Below, one piece after another: positions 56,369 to 62,117 of a stretch of DNA of 64,000 bases; the stretch's first letter is position 1; each line of letters starts with the position of its first letter. The stretch lies in the NCBI GenBank assembly GCA_034439715.1, contig JAWXAY010000100.1, positions 1 through 64,000 on the forward strand, written 5' to 3'. A model generated the notes under the pieces. The model had not been told where the DNA came from and did no database searches. It saw only the letters and a list, made by a program, of their open reading frames with translations. Made by a program: the position numbers and the translations under genes. This stretch comes from Pseudomonadota bacterium (GTDB taxonomy: Bacteria; Bdellovibrionota; Bdellovibrionia; Bdellovibrionales; SG-bin7).

Positions 56369-57523
56369 ATGTATCCCATTTATATGGACAACCATGCGAC
56401 CACGAGAGTTGATGAACGCGTTTTAGCAGTAATGTTGCCGTATTTTTGTGAACACTATGGGAACTCCTCACTAACTATGCATCGCTATGCTCGGCGAGCG
56501 GAGAGTGCGGTAGATGGCGCTCGTCTTCAAGTAGCAAAAATCATAGGTGCGACCAAAGACGAAATATTTTTTACTGGCACTGCAACCGAATCCATAAATC
56601 TGGCCATCAAAGGGGCTGCGTTTGCAAACAAAAATCATGGCGAGCACATCATTACCTCGATGGCCGAACACAAGGCCGTACTAAATTCTTGCCAAAGCTT
56701 GGAGAAGCAGGGTTTTAAGGTGACTTACCTCAAGCCTGAAAGCGATGGGAGGATTCTGCCCGAAAAAGTTTTTACAGCAATCACCGATAGAACCATATTA
56801 GTAACTTTGATGCTCGCGAACAATGAAAACGGTGTCATCCATGATGTAAAAACAATTGGCAAGGAACTTTCGAAAAGAAAAATTTTATTTCACATCGACG
56901 CCGTCCAAGGAGTAGGAAAAATTCCTTTTGATGTGACATCTAGCCACTCCGACTATGTATCCCTTTCTGCACACAAAATGTATGGCCCAAAGGGTGTTGC
57001 TGCCCTCTTTATTCGTAAAAATCCGAACACATTAATGGAGCCACTAACTGATGGTGGTGGCCAAGAGCAGGGAATACGATCTGGAACTCACAATGTTTCA
57101 GGAATCGTAGGGTTTGGGGAGGCCTGTCGTATTGCGCAGGAAGAAATGCCTGAGGAGAGTCAGCGACTGCTTAATCTTCGCGAATCGTTGCATCAAAAAA
57201 TAATTAGTCAGCTCGACGGTGTTTTTCTTAATGGCCCCCTGGAAAACCGGTTACCTGGAAATCTCAATATGAGTTTTGCCGAAATTGAAGGAGATGTACT
57301 TCTCGCATCTCTCATAGAAATCGCAGTGTCCTCAGGTTCCGCTTGCTCTGCAGGTAATCAAAACAGCTCTCACGTTTTACGTGCCCAAGGCGTTCCTGAC
57401 GATTTAGCTAAGGCCGCCATCCGCTTCGGGTTAGGTCGATATAACACTCAGGAGGAAGTCGACTTTGCCGCACAACTTGTTATACGCCATGTAAAGCGAC
57501 TGCGCCAATTTTCTGCTTTCTAA
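56369..57523 (+). CDS. iscS: Cysteine desulfurase (IscS/NifS group I)
   Basis: YMDNHATT, EHKAV, NNENG, DAVQ, SAHKMYGPKG (PLP Lys), RSGT, SSGSAC (catalytic Cys). Confidence 0.93.
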   Translation: MYPIYMDNHATTRVDERVLAVMLPYFCEHYGNSSLTMHRYARRAESAVDGARLQVAKIIGATKDEIFFTGTATESINLAIKGAAFANKNHGEHIITSMAEHKAVLNSCQSLEKQGFKVTYLKPESDGRILPEKVFTAITDRTILVTLMLANNENGVIHDVKTIGKELSKRKILFHIDAVQGVGKIPFDVTSSHSDYVSLSAHKMYGPKGVAALFIRKNPNTLMEPLTDGGGQEQGIRSGTHNVSGIVGFGEACRIAQEEMPEESQRLLNLRESLHQKIISQLDGVFLNGPLENRLPGNLNMSFAEIEGDVLLASLIEIAVSSGSACSAGNQNSSHVLRAQGVPDDLAKAAIRFGLGRYNTQEEVDFAAQLVIRHVKRLRQFSAF

Positions 57524-58347
57524 AATTTTTCGATAACTGAGGCGTGTAGTTTCTTATTCTCACCGGACAGATTATGCACAAAATAAACGTCTTCCCCAAC
57601 TTGATAAGCTTTTGTCTGCACGTAACATTCATCAAATAGAAAGTAAGCTTTTTTAAGTTCGGCATTTATTTTCTTTAGGGGATGACTAAGGCCTTTAAGA
57701 AGAGAATCTCCTTTGTCAGTATTTGCTTGAACTAGATTTTCGCGTCCTCTTCCAACGATACCCATGAGCTCTACGAAACACCATTGATCAGCAACTTCGC
57801 AAAGGTGGCGGTGAATTGTAAGTGAAATATTCCCCTCAGCTAAGATCTCCCCCGACGTTTCAATTTCGCTGAGAAGCACAGGAACAACCCTATCTGGTGT
57901 GGTATCATCTATTTCATCTGGTCGAAGTTTTTTTAGTAAGGACCCCTCAACTTTGCCAGTAACCCCGGCTAAAGAGGCATCTAAGTGCGCAACTTTAAGT
58001 GCAAATAAAAGTATTTTAACTTTAGCAATTTGTTTTTCCGCAGTTCTGAACTCTATATTAAAATCTAAGAGTGTTCCATTTTTGCGAAGGGTGGCACCCT
58101 TAACTTCGACAGTAAAACCATCATCGTCAAAAAAATCAACTCGGTCTTGATAAGCTATATCGATACCAACGATTACCCAACTCAGCCCGTGATTTTTAAC
58201 TCCATCCCGAAAGCTAACAAAGTGTGTTCGCAGCCACCCCCACATAACATTAAAACTGACAGATAATAAGGAGCGCGATTGAAATTGATGGGGAGTGAAT
58301 TGGCTCGTATCAAATGGGTAGTCGACAGTATGTGAACGCGGCATCAA
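57520..58347 (-). CDS. Uncharacterised double-hotdog (acyl-thioesterase-like) protein
   Basis: GLSWVIVGIDIAY...F.D...V strand pattern in the first half; IHRHLCEVADQW.FVE.....GRE and LKK...ELKK...LFD in the second half. Confidence 0.55.
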   Translation of the reverse strand: MMPRSHTVDYPFDTSQFTPHQFQSRSLLSVSFNVMWGWLRTHFVSFRDGVKNHGLSWVIVGIDIAYQDRVDFFDDDGFTVEVKGATLRKNGTLLDFNIEFRTAEKQIAKVKILLFALKVAHLDASLAGVTGKVEGSLLKKLRPDEIDDTTPDRVVPVLLSEIETSGEILAEGNISLTIHRHLCEVADQWCFVELMGIVGRGRENLVQANTDKGDSLLKGLSHPLKKINAELKKAYFLFDECYVQTKAYQVGEDVYFVHNLSGENKKLHASVIEKF

Positions 58348-58350
58348 CGA

Positions 58351-58620
58351 TTATCCTCCTGCAATCGCTGTTAAAATTTCTAAACAGTCCGTTTCTTGCA
58401 ATTGGCGCTTCATATCTTCAGGTAGAAGTTGCTCACCATTTAAAAATAACTGGTGGGCACCTCTCACGCTGCCATGGGTATCATAGAGAATAGATTTTAA
58501 CGTCGGATAAGTTGTCGTCAAAGAATCGAGAGCCGCCGTGATGGTACGAGCTTCACCAATGATATGCTCCTTTTTATAACCTACAAATCGCAACAGAGTT
58601 CCTGAAAGTTTAACTATCAT
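58351..58620 (-). CDS. MoaD/ThiS/CysO-family ubiquitin-like sulfur carrier protein
   Basis: 89-aa beta-grasp pattern (TI..AL..L...YP.L, LFLNGE, D.LEIL) ending in IAGG. Confidence 0.93.
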   Translation of the reverse strand: MIVKLSGTLLRFVGYKKEHIIGEARTITAALDSLTTTYPTLKSILYDTHGSVRGAHQLFLNGEQLLPEDMKRQLQETDCLEILTAIAGG

Positions 58621-59804
58621 GGTGCCTTCTTCCTGTGTTGTCTTTGTTCAAAATTATGTGTGGCCCACACGCCAAGATCGACTTCAATGGTATCTTGGGC
58701 TCCAACGGTAGGGATTAGACCCGTAAAATCTCGTTGAAATCTTCCATACTGTTGGTCCTGAATATAACCTTTGCCCCCTGCCAATCGAAATACCTGTAGC
58801 ATGAATTGGTTAGCTTGATCGACGATATGATATTTCGTAGCAGTCAAGAATGGATCCCAAAGGGGTTCAATATTTTTGTCTCTTAATTTTTCTAATGCAC
58901 GATAAAGCATGGCCCGGCTTGTCTCGATAGAAACATACATCTTTCCTAAGAGAGATTGGACATTTTGCATGACTGTTAGGGGCCGCTCATATCGGGTGGT
59001 GCCTATCAGATTATTCATCAGGTCGTCGTAGATCGACTGCATTTTTCCAACCAGGCCACAAATGACAGAGATTCTTCTTAGGTTTAAAAAACGCTGAACG
59101 TGGCTGAGTCCATCAGCTGGTGTTAATATTCGGTTGGCATCCAGTACTATGTTATTGAACTTGAGCCCCGCCAGACCTACAGAGCGAAGGCCACTCATTG
59201 TGGTGAGTGGAATAATTTCAAGCCCGTCATCATCGCGTTCAATAAGAAAGGTAAGAAGATCATTTTTTTCGTCTCGTACGTAAACCATAAAGAGATCGGC
59301 CTGCATTCCGCCCATGACATAAAATTTTTCGCCATTTATAATATATTTATCGCCTTTTTTTTCGCACGAGGAGCGAAAAGAGAAAGGATCAGCCCCCTCT
59401 GTATAAGCAAATGAAGCTAAGCACTTGCCATGAACTGCAGGACGCAAGTAGCGCTCAATCATCCAAGGCGTCGCTGTTTCTTGAATTGTATTGGCAACAG
59501 CTGGAAAAAGTGAACTGAGCATAACAAAGGAAAAATCGGTGCTGTGTTTTCCTAAATCTTCTAAGAGTAGCCCATAACTCAATGGATCCAGGCCACCTCC
59601 ACCAATATTTTTAGAAAGTGAAGCAGAAAATAGACCTAACTCTGCGGACTCGATAAATATATCTTTGGGGATGGGAGTTGCCAACTGATCTCGGGTAATA
59701 ACATGGCGATTAACTTGTTCATCAAGAAAAGATCTCATCTTGGGATTTAGAGCACTTTTCATATGAAAATTTATCGGGAAAGAATCAGGGGAACGGTAGG
59801 CCAA
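58617..59804 (-). CDS. Acyl-CoA dehydrogenase-family flavoprotein (atypical active site)
   Basis: AYTE.AD, INGEK, GLRS, Q.VQ..L..M, GGKGY, R..RD; true start may be ATG 59762. Confidence 0.88.
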   Translation of the reverse strand: MAYRSPDSFPINFHMKSALNPKMRSFLDEQVNRHVITRDQLATPIPKDIFIESAELGLFSASLSKNIGGGGLDPLSYGLLLEDLGKHSTDFSFVMLSSLFPAVANTIQETATPWMIERYLRPAVHGKCLASFAYTEGADPFSFRSSCEKKGDKYIINGEKFYVMGGMQADLFMVYVRDEKNDLLTFLIERDDDGLEIIPLTTMSGLRSVGLAGLKFNNIVLDANRILTPADGLSHVQRFLNLRRISVICGLVGKMQSIYDDLMNNLIGTTRYERPLTVMQNVQSLLGKMYVSIETSRAMLYRALEKLRDKNIEPLWDPFLTATKYHIVDQANQFMLQVFRLAGGKGYIQDQQYGRFQRDFTGLIPTVGAQDTIEVDLGVWATHNFEQRQHRKKAP

Positions 59805-59809
59805 ATCTG

Positions 59810-61030
59810 ATGCCCAACATCAATGGGAAAACTGTAAAGTTTTGGTTACTTATGACGATAGAACGGAGTATGCCCAGACCTTTATCCAGCACAGCGTTAA
59901 AACTCTCAAAAGAAGAAGTGCGTCGTTACAGTCGACATCTCTTAATGCCCCAGGTGAAAATGGAAGGTCAGCTCAAACTAAAAGCGGCACGTGTATTGAT
60001 TATCGGCACGGGCGGTTTGGGTGCGCCGTTAGGGTTATATTTAGCTGCGGCTGGAATAGGAATGCTAGGCTTGGTTGATTTCGATGTGGTCGATGCTAGT
60101 AACCTCCAGCGACAAGTTATATTTACCAATGATGATATCGGTCGCCCCAAGGTAGAGGCGGCACGTGACCACCTTTCAAAACTAAATCATTACATAGAAA
60201 TCATGTCGTATAATGAACTCTTCACAAGTCAAAATGCCCTCCGTATTATGCAGGAATACGATGTGATCGTAGATGCGACTGATAATTTTCCGACAAGATA
60301 CTTAATTAACGATGCCTGTGTGTTTACGCAGAAGCCCTATGTTTATGGGAGTATTTTTCAACATGAAGGACAGGTCACGGTTTTTGCGAAAAGTGATGGT
60401 CCCTGTTACCGCTGTTTGTTTCCGGAACCACCGCCGCCGGGAATGGTACCCAGTTGTGCCGAGGGGGGAGTGCTGGGAGTTTTGCCAGGAATCATTGGTT
60501 CCCTTCAAGCCAATGAAGCTCTCAATTTAATTTTAAATATTGGTGAGGGCCTAGCGGGCAGGCTTGTGAGGTTTGATGCTATCAATGTTCGTTTCAAAGA
60601 ACTAAAAATTAAAAAAAACCCAAACTGTCCTGTCTGCGGAGCGAATCCTTCGATTACCAAGCTTATCGACTATGAAGAGTTTTGTGGATTGTCCGATAAA
60701 AATGCCACTCACGAAGGCCAAGAAATTGAACCTATCCTACTAAAGCAATGGTTAGACCGAAACGAACAGGTGTCCCTAGTCGATGTAAGGGAACCCGGCG
60801 AGTACGAAATTTGTAATTTGGGCGGACAACTAATACCTTTATATGAAATACCATTGCGGATGCACGAATTTGATTCGAGCCTGCGAATTGTTATTTTATG
60901 TAGTGGTGGCCAGCGGTCAGCCCGTGCCGTAGAGTTATTACGAAAATCTGGTTTTAAAAATGTTTGGAATTTAAAAGGTGGTTTGTTTGCGTGGAGTGAC
61001 CAGATTGACCCGACTTTTGTGAAATATTGA
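59810..61030 (+). CDS. moeB: MoeZ-type E1-like adenylyltransferase fused to rhodanese
   Basis: RYSRH, GTGGLG, SNLQRQ, DNF.TRY, CYRC and CPVC Zn motifs, PSCAEGG Cys, rhodanese DVRE..E and C.GG.RS. Confidence 0.92.
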   Translation: MPNINGKTVKFWLLMTIERSMPRPLSSTALKLSKEEVRRYSRHLLMPQVKMEGQLKLKAARVLIIGTGGLGAPLGLYLAAAGIGMLGLVDFDVVDASNLQRQVIFTNDDIGRPKVEAARDHLSKLNHYIEIMSYNELFTSQNALRIMQEYDVIVDATDNFPTRYLINDACVFTQKPYVYGSIFQHEGQVTVFAKSDGPCYRCLFPEPPPPGMVPSCAEGGVLGVLPGIIGSLQANEALNLILNIGEGLAGRLVRFDAINVRFKELKIKKNPNCPVCGANPSITKLIDYEEFCGLSDKNATHEGQEIEPILLKQWLDRNEQVSLVDVREPGEYEICNLGGQLIPLYEIPLRMHEFDSSLRIVILCSGGQRSARAVELLRKSGFKNVWNLKGGLFAWSDQIDPTFVKY

Positions 61031-61035
61031 TTTTA

Positions 61036-61716
61036 TTAGGGCTTACCCGAAAGCACTCTTGTGCCTAAAGGCTTTGACGAACCACCCTTTGGTTCACGAG
61101 TAATTAAGATCGAAGAAAGTTTTTTAGGATCTGATATTGGTAATTCCTCCAATTTGAAAACTTTTAATTCTGGAGAGTCGACAGAAAAACTCATTAGATT
61201 TAGATTTACGGAGCCCTGTTGAACCATCCATAGCTGATATTCCGAGGTGTCGGCGTTGGATTTAAGGCCCGATACCAACAGGCTCGCTGTCTTAAGGCCG
61301 GGTACCCAAAAAAATTTGCCATTAGCTTTAGATTCAGGGTCAGAAGTTATCAACGGTATAATTTTGAGTTTTGAAGAATCCAGAATTGCGGTGAGTTCGC
61401 TAAACTTTTTACTTAAAGTCTCGAGATTTTCAATTTTGACTTGATCTTGAGCGGATTTCTCACTCGCCGCTGCTATCTGTTGTTCCATCCCCTTGGATTT
61501 TTGCCCAATTTGATCCAACTCGGACTGCAGTTGGTCAACTTCACTTTTTCTATTTAAAAGTTCTGAGCTTAAGTTGCCCAGCTGATTCCTTAACTCTCGA
61601 GCGCCCGTCACATAGTGTAAAGCAACAAACAGACACACTATAGCCAAAAAGTATCCTATAAAAATGGGACTCATAAGGCCTTTTAGTTTTTCAAACTTCT
61701 TTACTATTTCGTTCAT
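61036..61716 (-). CDS. Membrane-anchored coiled-coil protein with RskA-like anti-sigma C-terminal domain
   Basis: TM plus coiled coil plus YQLW and IT.EPKGGS..P.G motifs. Confidence 0.8.
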   Translation of the reverse strand: MNEIVKKFEKLKGLMSPIFIGYFLAIVCLFVALHYVTGARELRNQLGNLSSELLNRKSEVDQLQSELDQIGQKSKGMEQQIAAASEKSAQDQVKIENLETLSKKFSELTAILDSSKLKIIPLITSDPESKANGKFFWVPGLKTASLLVSGLKSNADTSEYQLWMVQQGSVNLNLMSFSVDSPELKVFKLEELPISDPKKLSSILITREPKGGSSKPLGTRVLSGKP

Positions 61717-62117
61717 TGAATTGTGGGGACCACCGAGAATTTCATCTCATTTTTATCGCCATTAGACGAACCTACGGTAATTTCTGCTTCACCCCCATCA
61801 AGAGCAAAAATCTGAGGGGTAGAAATAATTTTTTTCTTACCATCTATCGTCTGACTTATGACGAAATTCATATTGATGCCTGCGATTGCGTCGACCTTTG
61901 TTTGTTTGGCATGAACTTCAATAAAGGTCTCATTGAACTCATTTATTTCTGTCGCGCGCTGCGAGATCATAGCTTTTTCTCCATCTAAAACCACGACGAC
62001 GGGAGCAGACACATCTCGACCATCGATCGTAAGTTTCATGTCAAGTTTTATCGATTTTGTCGCAGAAAACGCAAAGGAAGACGCAAAAAGAACGGCTAAA
62101 GTTAAAATATGTTTCAT
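61713..62117 (-). CDS. Secreted hypothetical protein
   Basis: GGAGG RBS; signal peptide; two internal S.P....LDG..A.I repeats; ATGA-coupled to the next gene. Confidence 0.7.
   Translation of the reverse strand: MKHILTLAVLFASSFAFSATKSIKLDMKLTIDGRDVSAPVVVVLDGEKAMISQRATEINEFNETFIEVHAKQTKVDAIAGINMNFVISQTIDGKKKIISTPQIFALDGGEAEITVGSSNGDKNEMKFSVVPTIQ

Follow-up and report, generated by a model that had tools for sequence, protein, structure and literature searches.

A conserved gene module of a sulfur carrier, a double-hotdog protein and a base-less acyl-CoA-dehydrogenase-fold protein with a probable role in sulfur insertion into acyl chains

The window analyzed here, a stretch of 64,000 nucleotides of contig JAWXAY010000100.1 (assembly GCA_034439715.1, positions 1 to 64,000, forward strand) from a bacterium of the Bdellovibrionota, contains five contiguous genes for a cysteine desulfurase, a sulfur carrier, an E1-type activator, a hotdog protein and a protein of the acyl-CoA dehydrogenase (ACAD) fold. 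The initial annotation had claimed these five genes for the locus, and all were confirmed to be real and intact. In the order of their coordinates, they are:

56369..57523, plus strand, IscS/NifS-type cysteine desulfurase of 384 amino acids; the fourth desulfurase copy of the genome and the predicted local sulfur source
57520..58347, minus strand, double-hotdog protein of a family without annotation, 274 amino acids from the ATG at 58344; predicted to transfer sulfur and to cleave a thioester
58351..58620, minus strand, ubiquitin-like sulfur carrier of the MoaD/CysO/SAMP1 type, 89 amino acids, with a free C-terminal Gly-Gly
58617..59804, minus strand, non-canonical ACAD-fold protein, likely start at the ATG at 59762; predicted base-less flavoprotein
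59810..61030, plus strand, MoeZ-type E1-rhodanese fusion, likely start at the ATG at 59852 or 59870; predicted activator of the carrier through adenylation and thiocarboxylation

The desulfurase matches Pfam Aminotran_5 (E 9e-79), its top NCBIfam matches are IscS and NifS, both under their cut-offs, and it contains the residues of group I (IscS/NifS) enzymes, namely Lys203 in SAHK, the pyridoxal phosphate lysine, and Cys326 in SGSAC. It is 47% identical to an IscS-like copy on contig C56 of the same genome. For the carrier, the Pfam ThiS match exceeds the cut-off and the top NCBIfam match, SAMP1, falls under it; the nearest solved structures to the carrier profile are 3dwg_C, which we take to be CysO, and the ThiS/MoaD protein 4n6e_B. 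Carrier homologs terminate in GG in 62 of 63 cases and in GG-NR in the remaining one. The MoeZ protein matches ThiF (E 1.6e-83) and Rhodanese (E 5e-14) in Pfam and keeps GxGGLG, the zinc CxxC pairs, Cys216 and the rhodanese Cys364. The GC content of the cluster (43.3%, as compared to 42.3% for the genome) is uninformative, and a promoter and terminator scan performed at chance level (13 found, 10.4 +/- 3.1 expected). In the region beyond MoeZ (window 61036-62117), a gene for an RskA-like anti-sigma factor is convergent with MoeZ and ends 5 bp from its stop, and the gene that follows has a weak match to a secretin domain.

Clustering at 50% leaves 232 representatives of the hotdog family. Scanning by alignment retrieved nine loci, of which eight were true and one (L009) was a false match, and scanning with a DNA motif retrieved 110 stretches, of which 80 were flanked. 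We left out 30 short stretches (25 with a hotdog match), three duplicates and 11 loci that were flanked but had no hotdog match, and arrived at 74 loci. In 71 of these, the carrier gene is no more than 1.5 kb from the hotdog gene, and in 68 a member of the ACAD family of the window protein is encoded no more than 3.5 kb away. Three of the six ACAD misses were at contig edges or in split genes; the other three loci (L039, L071, L079) are fully flanked yet have no full copy. In the control loci without a hotdog match (the 11 flanked loci and L009), carrier, ACAD and E1 genes were found in 0 of 12. A scan anchored on the ACAD recovered 19 loci, and among the 17 with new identifiers, several of which are on contigs already in hand, the carrier was present in 16 and the hotdog gene in 15. 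In a metagenome search, from which the best 80 of 111 loci were taken and the identical L138 was excluded, the carrier was present in all 66 loci with at least 400 bp of upstream sequence, and a desulfurase in none of the 79 loci, most of which are on short contigs.

These results show that the carrier, the hotdog protein and the base-less ACAD constitute a conserved three-gene module. The five-gene unit, as first proposed, is not the conserved set: an E1 gene is adjacent in 16 of the 74 loci and is thus optional, and the desulfurase, present in two, is a rare local extra. The initial annotation had named rare proximity of hotdog and ACAD homologs to carrier genes as an argument against a dedicated pathway, and the carrier was found next to them almost always. 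By record titles, the core spans at least eight major groups: Actinomycetota, Myxococcota, Pseudomonadota, Nitrospirota, Acidobacteriota, Dormiibacterota/Chloroflexi, Spirochaetota and Cyanobacteriota. Of 72 loci, 67 have the carrier and hotdog genes as immediate neighbors. The order ACAD-carrier-hotdog, as in the window, occurs in 25 of the 74 loci, and the order carrier-hotdog-ACAD, with the carrier next to the hotdog gene and apart from the ACAD, in 40. In one protein (P0130), hotdog and ACAD are fused into a single chain. Pairwise identities among carrier, hotdog and ACAD correlate at 0.65-0.73, which we do not take as co-evolution because such values are common to kin.

Several single loci deserve mention. 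The three-gene core is present on the megaplasmid pSCL4 of Streptomyces clavuligerus (L218:13410-15861), a cultured and tractable host. Signs of decay include a split ACAD in P. psychrophila and a split hotdog gene in one Streptomyces (L045:10859-12054; L082:9374-10333), a transposase-like fragment within a Microcystis operon (L136:4752-5063) and, in P. lundensis (L084), no adjacent MoeZ at the site where P. psychrophila has one. One record (P0143), possibly a chimera, is an 810-amino-acid fusion of malate synthase to a hotdog-family protein.

The hotdog protein has a double-hotdog fold, and its nearest folds are the FatA-type acyl-ACP (acyl carrier protein) thioesterases and the acyltransferase LnmK. 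Its identity to FatA/FatB-type thioesterases and LnmK is only 7-13%, and it has no Pfam match at E 0.1, including none to Acyl-ACP_TE. The place at which the Asp/Asn/His catalytic motif of the FatA/B-type thioesterases would be expected is taken by a different conserved motif of the family, R-x-x-C-E-x-A-D-Q-W. Conserved residues, in the numbering of the 274-residue protein, are R179, E/D183, A185, D186, Q187, W188, R201, E202, H257 and E272. Cys182 is present in 113 of 130 family members and replaced by Met or Leu in the Cellvibrio/Microcystis clade, and an E2-like relay through this residue was ruled out for that reason.

The ACAD-fold protein is matched by all three Pfam domains (N, M and C), and its Atlas model has a TM of 0.88 to an ACAD cluster. 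It does not qualify as a normal dehydrogenase, since the catalytic base is missing: Arg243 is aligned to the position of the catalytic Glu of isovaleryl-CoA dehydrogenase in helix G, and T366-V367-G368 is aligned to the YEG motif, as judged by spacing from the conserved RD. Among 64 aligned ACADs of the family, position 243 is Arg in 61, Gln in one and Glu in one, and position 367 is Gln in 36, Ala in 18 and Gly in seven, or another residue such as the Val of the window protein. The motif is mostly G-[Q/A/G]-G, Glu is never among the most frequent residues at position 367, and, apart from the one protein with Glu at position 243, essentially no family member appears to keep a catalytic Glu. 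Arg244 and Arg271, which are common to ACADs, are retained; the former, which in ACADs contacts the CoA moiety, is a general ACAD arginine rather than a family-specific residue. In the sequence alignment, the segment of the putative flavin adenine dinucleotide (FAD) site retains Arg271, Gly343 and T-E...D and has a three-residue deletion. The Glu of YEG initiates normal ACAD catalysis and is absent in isovaleryl-CoA dehydrogenase, in sulfinopropionyl-CoA desulfinase, a non-redox enzyme that strips the sulfino group as sulfite, and in IaaF, a decarboxylating dehydrogenase (PMC8360864).

As for the sulfur supply, the rhodanese active-site Cys motif is present in 15 of the 16 adjacent E1 proteins, and the sole plain E1 is encoded beside a desulfurase. 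Desulfurases of three different types, with 26-28% identity to one another, accompany the module in the window, L056 and L065, and were therefore recruited separately. In three gammaproteobacterial genomes (Yersinia vastinensis, Pseudomonas rubra and Cellvibrio), the neighbor of the module is the only full-length MoeZ in the genome, while in Microcystis and S. sparsogenes MoeZ is encoded elsewhere in the genome and none is adjacent. An E1 was present in all 19 further genomes; the match spans the C-terminal rhodanese in 11 of them, in seven the best match is in a frame of about 390-450 amino acids, not examined for an N-terminal rhodanese, and the last, P. lundensis, has only a short E1. The recruitment of the E1 rhodanese and of the desulfurase, as read from these sequences, points to sulfur and not to adenylation alone.

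The loci come in two architectures, a minimal form of ACAD-carrier-hotdog with or without MoeZ, and an extended form in which the genes are arranged as fatty acyl-AMP ligase (FAAL)-carrier-hotdog-long ACAD-ACP-base-less ACAD. About half of the 74 loci carry such extras (FAAL, ACP, a canonical dehydrogenase, a methyltransferase-like domain). A second, long ACAD is present in 36 loci, with an FEG motif in 35 of them, and FAAL likewise in 36, with both genes together in 30; in three further FAAL loci an acyl-CoA-oxidase-like gene replaces the long ACAD. The base-less ACAD has a C-terminal tail of more than 200 amino acids in 31 of the 74 loci, and a profile built from 24 tails matches methyltransferases dependent on S-adenosylmethionine (SAM) (5f8c, E 7e-13). 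A stand-alone methyltransferase is encoded in five more loci.

Extended loci (L019:2079-4150; L023, L043, L058, L080) are often located beside a second cassette, which contains either a ferritin-like desaturase-type gene, a small acidic ACP-like protein, a PPTase and a thioesterase, or a ferredoxin with an enoyl reductase and an acyl-ACP desaturase. In Cellvibrio-like genomes (L004:9059-14741; L005, L006, L008), the operon is framed by a secreted-looking non-Pfam protein of 202 amino acids and a MauG-type di-haem peroxidase, with MerR, rhodanese and Lgt genes in the surroundings. In two Leptospirales genomes (L131:8352-9971; L134:8237-9862), the hotdog gene is followed by a gene for a flavoprotein of 540 amino acids, for which the top NCBIfam match in L131, the halogenase CmlS, is far under the cut-off. 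A link to sparsomycin was considered for S. sparsogenes, which has the module, and was rejected; the locus is a FAAL/ACP/ACAD cassette, and no non-ribosomal peptide synthetase was seen within 20 kb.

The source genome (3.26 Mb, 95.7% complete) was searched for the pathways that such a relay usually serves. There were no matches in the genome to MoaE (PF02391) or MoaC (PF01967) for the molybdenum cofactor, to TtuA (TIGR00269) for tRNA thiolation, or to the JAB protease (PF14464) of the CysO/CysM/Mec system; for the thiamine thiazole, the only match to ThiG was partial (21 bits) and below the cut-off. CysM is absent from the five-gene cluster, the extent to which it was searched for. The window MoeZ is the only MoeZ/MoeB-like gene of the genome and the window carrier its only small carrier of the ThiS/MoaD family, so that the suspicion, raised with the initial annotation, that these are the sole copies was borne out, but the molybdenum cofactor, thiamine-thiazole and TtuA pathways in which they could act are all missing. 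The same suspicion did not hold for IscS, since there are three further desulfurases, of which one adjoins an IscA-like gene, one adjoins mnmA and one belongs to a suf operon, as assigned from sequence motifs. A second ThiF match in the genome (G000:C48:271-2841), a weak one in a frame of 402 amino acids beside peptidase-like and helix-turn-helix-like genes, was discarded as a further MoeZ-like gene, as its sequence appears to resemble a defence-type E1. A housekeeping relay that adjoins lipid genes by chance, for which the lack of any other MoeZ or small carrier could speak, is contradicted by these absences, by the hotdog gene being found in none of three genomes of the same family, and by the repeated occurrence of the three-gene linkage across phyla. 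We consider this reading largely refuted and its chances negligible, and the proposal of a dedicated, non-housekeeping sulfur relay is supported.

With a high degree of confidence, we suggest that the module is dedicated to the insertion of sulfur into an acyl chain. The initial proposal that the downstream chemistry is performed by the ACAD-fold and hotdog proteins is supported by the almost invariable proximity of both to the carrier, and the chemistry sketched there, sulfur addition to an enoyl-thioester and product release by the hotdog protein, is still plausible. The exact route is a more tentative matter, and the one that we put forward, with more doubt than conviction, is thiolation of an enoyl-thioester at C3 by the hotdog protein, followed by base-free flavin oxidation by the ACAD. 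The desulfurase would pass a persulfide to the rhodanese domain of MoeZ, and MoeZ would convert the Gly-Gly end of the carrier into a thiocarboxylate, which is established chemistry for these families and is suggested here by the catalytic residues. The linkage, folds, residues and absence of housekeeping partners are observed, and the later steps we infer. The acceptor may be a host enoyl-CoA or enoyl-ACP in minimal loci such as that of the window, whereas in the extended ones FAAL, ACP and the Glu-bearing dehydrogenase of the locus may supply an enoyl-thioester. The hotdog protein would bond the carrier sulfur to C3 and split the carrier thioester, so that a 3-mercaptoacyl chain is formed and the carrier is regenerated with no need for a JAB protease. 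Oxidation by the ACAD would then need no protein base, as a thiolate held by Arg243 could drive the C3 hydride to FAD, giving a 3-thioxo or enethiol acyl chain. Where a methyltransferase domain is present, it might conceivably cap the sulfur as a methylthio group, and where it is not, release and decarboxylation could perhaps yield a small thioketone or secondary thiol.

The preference for this route is based on the order of the steps, the enoyl acceptor and the lost Tyr and Glu. The adjacency of carrier and hotdog genes and the methyltransferase-like domain on the ACAD suggest the order carrier, hotdog, ACAD, methyltransferase, and we favor, because of gene order and fusions, the hotdog protein as the likely partner of the carrier and the ACAD as the probable next step. 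An enoyl acceptor is suggested by the desaturating enzyme that the extended loci include, and a substrate with a C3 substituent, for which no base is required, by the loss of Tyr and Glu from YEG. This loss is common to isovaleryl-CoA dehydrogenase and sulfinopropionyl-CoA desulfinase (PMC8360864), which supports a C3 substituent. A number of observations weigh against the route or its generality. YEG is lost as well in IaaF, a decarboxylating dehydrogenase whose reaction involves no sulfur (PMC8360864). The nearest folds of the hotdog protein act at the thioester carbonyl, which suits the formation of a thioacid equally well or better. Conjugate addition by hotdog proteins is known for ScoD/CmiS1, which belong to a different subfamily. 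The SAM-binding motif of the methyltransferase-like tail has a degenerate appearance, and in P. lundensis, which retains all three genes, the only E1 detected is short and has no rhodanese, a result that also speaks against a strict need for MoeZ. On the substrate side, no match to FAAL was found in the source genome, and the ACADs elsewhere in it are all ordinary. Finally, the 74 loci include many related Streptomyces, and the counts overstate their independence.

A close rival to C3 thiolation is that the hotdog protein is a sulfur-accepting thioesterase that swaps the carrier sulfur onto the carbonyl of an acyl-ACP or acyl-CoA and frees a thioacid (R-COSH), after which the flavoprotein S-hydroxylates it to an acylsulfenic acid or oxidatively closes a thiolactone, and a methyltransferase caps the product. 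We regard this as possible, though on balance doubtful. It agrees with the acyl-ACP thioesterase and LnmK acyltransferase fold of the hotdog protein, with the FAAL in 36 of 74 loci and with the Arg at the base position, which would fit an anionic thioacid. The same logic has been proven, with other folds, for sulfenicin, where a CoA ligase, a CoA-transferase, a carrier thiocarboxylate and a flavin-dependent S-hydroxylase are used (10.1101/2024.10.16.618611). However, that hydroxylase is a group B monooxygenase, and the main text of the preprint makes no mention of an acyl-CoA dehydrogenase (10.1101/2024.10.16.618611). Such a scheme also leaves unexplained the Glu-bearing dehydrogenase or oxidase of the extended operons (39 of 74 loci), and no flavin reductase was seen among the annotated recurring neighbors.

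Third in rank, and unlikely, is a reversed order of the two enzymes, which is nearest to the idea in the initial annotation: the ACAD makes the C-S bond, as a reverse desulfinase or by oxidative or decarboxylative coupling, and the hotdog protein only hydrolyzes the carrier thioester to give the thiol. There is a precedent for a Glu-less ACAD that acts on a C-S bond without redox chemistry (PMC8360864), Arg243 could bind the thiocarboxylate, the FatA fold hydrolyzes protein-bound thioesters, and the carrier is located between ACAD and hotdog in the 25 loci arranged like the window. In the 40 loci with the order carrier-hotdog-ACAD, however, the carrier is kept with the hotdog gene, the fused methyltransferase-like domain suggests that the ACAD acts last, and the fully flanked L071 and L079 retain carrier and hotdog without a full ACAD. 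We consider it improbable to a still greater degree that the carrier modifies proteins or lipids, in a SAMP- or Urm1-like conjugation, or serves as an amide-linked scaffold, with the sulfur being incidental. The SAMP1 match, although under its cut-off, and the widespread Cys182 of the hotdog protein would fit such a role, but a residue that is Met or Leu in one clade cannot be an essential E2-like nucleophile, the genome has no JAB match, and the recruited rhodanese and desulfurase indicate sulfur.

A weak lead to a product comes from Cyanobacteriota. The module is present in three of 17 Microcystis genomes and in Pannus (L124:550-3444, L125:3238-8871, L136:3378-8874, L127:4585-7092), and in L125, L136 and L127 it is adjoined by a pair of secreted-looking genes common to all three loci (about 545 and 223-247 amino acids), without an NCBIfam match for the pair in L136. 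A gene for a thiamine-diphosphate-dependent 2-oxoacid decarboxylase is located downstream of the module in three Microcystis loci; it was rejected as a pathway member, since it is present in 17 of 17 Microcystis genomes, as compared to three for the module, and is unlinked in Pannus. The adjacency probably reflects the insertion site. Production of isopropylthiol may be widespread in Microcystis, which would argue against a link to the module. Reviews name Microcystis as an emitter of this thiol, and no primary or biosynthetic account was found in the literature searched. That some Microcystis copies turn crotonyl-CoA into isopropylthiol, a bloom odor, is a long shot.

More broadly, the module may represent a general bacterial acyl-thiol synthase, in at least eight phyla, in which a thiolate-driven oxidation new to the ACAD fold leads to thioketones, secondary thiols or methylthio-acyl compounds; this is a speculative proposal, with the odds rather against it. 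A search for a combination of carrier, ACAD, thioesterase or hotdog protein, MoeZ and FAAL found no description of the module in literature that excluded most subscription journals, which is not proof of novelty. The module is real and conserved across many bacteria, and is apparently a form of carrier-based sulfur insertion that has not been described before and in which an unusual flavoprotein takes part. Few partner enzymes are known for carrier-thiocarboxylate chemistry in specialized metabolism, and the module adds two folds that are undescribed for sulfur transfer in the literature searched. It flags many unassigned clusters in cultured Streptomyces, Micromonospora, Nocardia, Pseudomonas, myxobacteria and Microcystis, through which a class of sulfur-containing, lipid-like metabolites can be sought directly. 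The window copy has all five predicted steps from cysteine onwards and thus offers a compact kit for reconstitution.

Several known systems are close to the module. The ScoA-E/CmiS1 pathway to isonitrile lipopeptides combines FAAL, ACP and a hotdog protein, and adds glycine to C3 of an enoyl-ACP. It differs from the module in its nitrogen nucleophile, in the hotdog subfamily and in having no sulfur carrier. The CysO-CysM-Mec and BexX-CysO systems share with the module the kinship of their carriers (3dwg_C, 4n6e_B) and activation by a MoeZ-type protein. Their carriers work with a pyridoxal-phosphate enzyme or a ThiG-like enzyme, and the sulfur goes to phosphoserine or a sugar instead of an acyl chain. 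As in the ACAD of the module, small residues replace YEG in 3-sulfinopropionyl-CoA desulfinase (AGG), in the benzylmalonyl-CoA dehydrogenase IaaF (GGG) and in isovaleryl-CoA dehydrogenase (GAG) (PMC8360864). Isovaleryl-CoA dehydrogenase has kept the Glu of helix G, whereas the module family has Arg, and the score of the window protein against the NCBIfam desulfinase is 82, with a cut-off of 600.

Thioacid cassettes are further known from thioplatensimycin (PtmA3/PtmU4), pyridine-2,6-dithiocarboxylic acid (PDTC) and thioquinolobactin. The PDTC cluster has an ACAD-like gene and a methyltransferase gene. A GG-ended carrier and a rhodanese-fused E1, as in these cassettes (PtmU4/TaaI/PdtI type), are both present in the window, and no CoA-transferase was found among the scanned window genes or the annotated recurring neighbors. 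The cassettes use a CoA-transferase, a CoA ligase and a JAMM protease that uncaps the carrier, whereas the module has a hotdog protein, a Glu-less ACAD, an uncapped carrier and no JAB protease. Membership in the sulfenicin type was rejected, since the enzyme folds differ from those given in the preprint, which itself draws an analogy to thioPTM (10.1101/2024.10.16.618611). The thioacid cassettes are similar to the module in that a desulfurase or thiosulfate, a MoeZ-type activator and a GG-ended carrier feed an acyl thioester, and in the sulfenicin cassette (TaaH-J) a flavoenzyme afterwards oxidizes the sulfur (10.1101/2024.10.16.618611).

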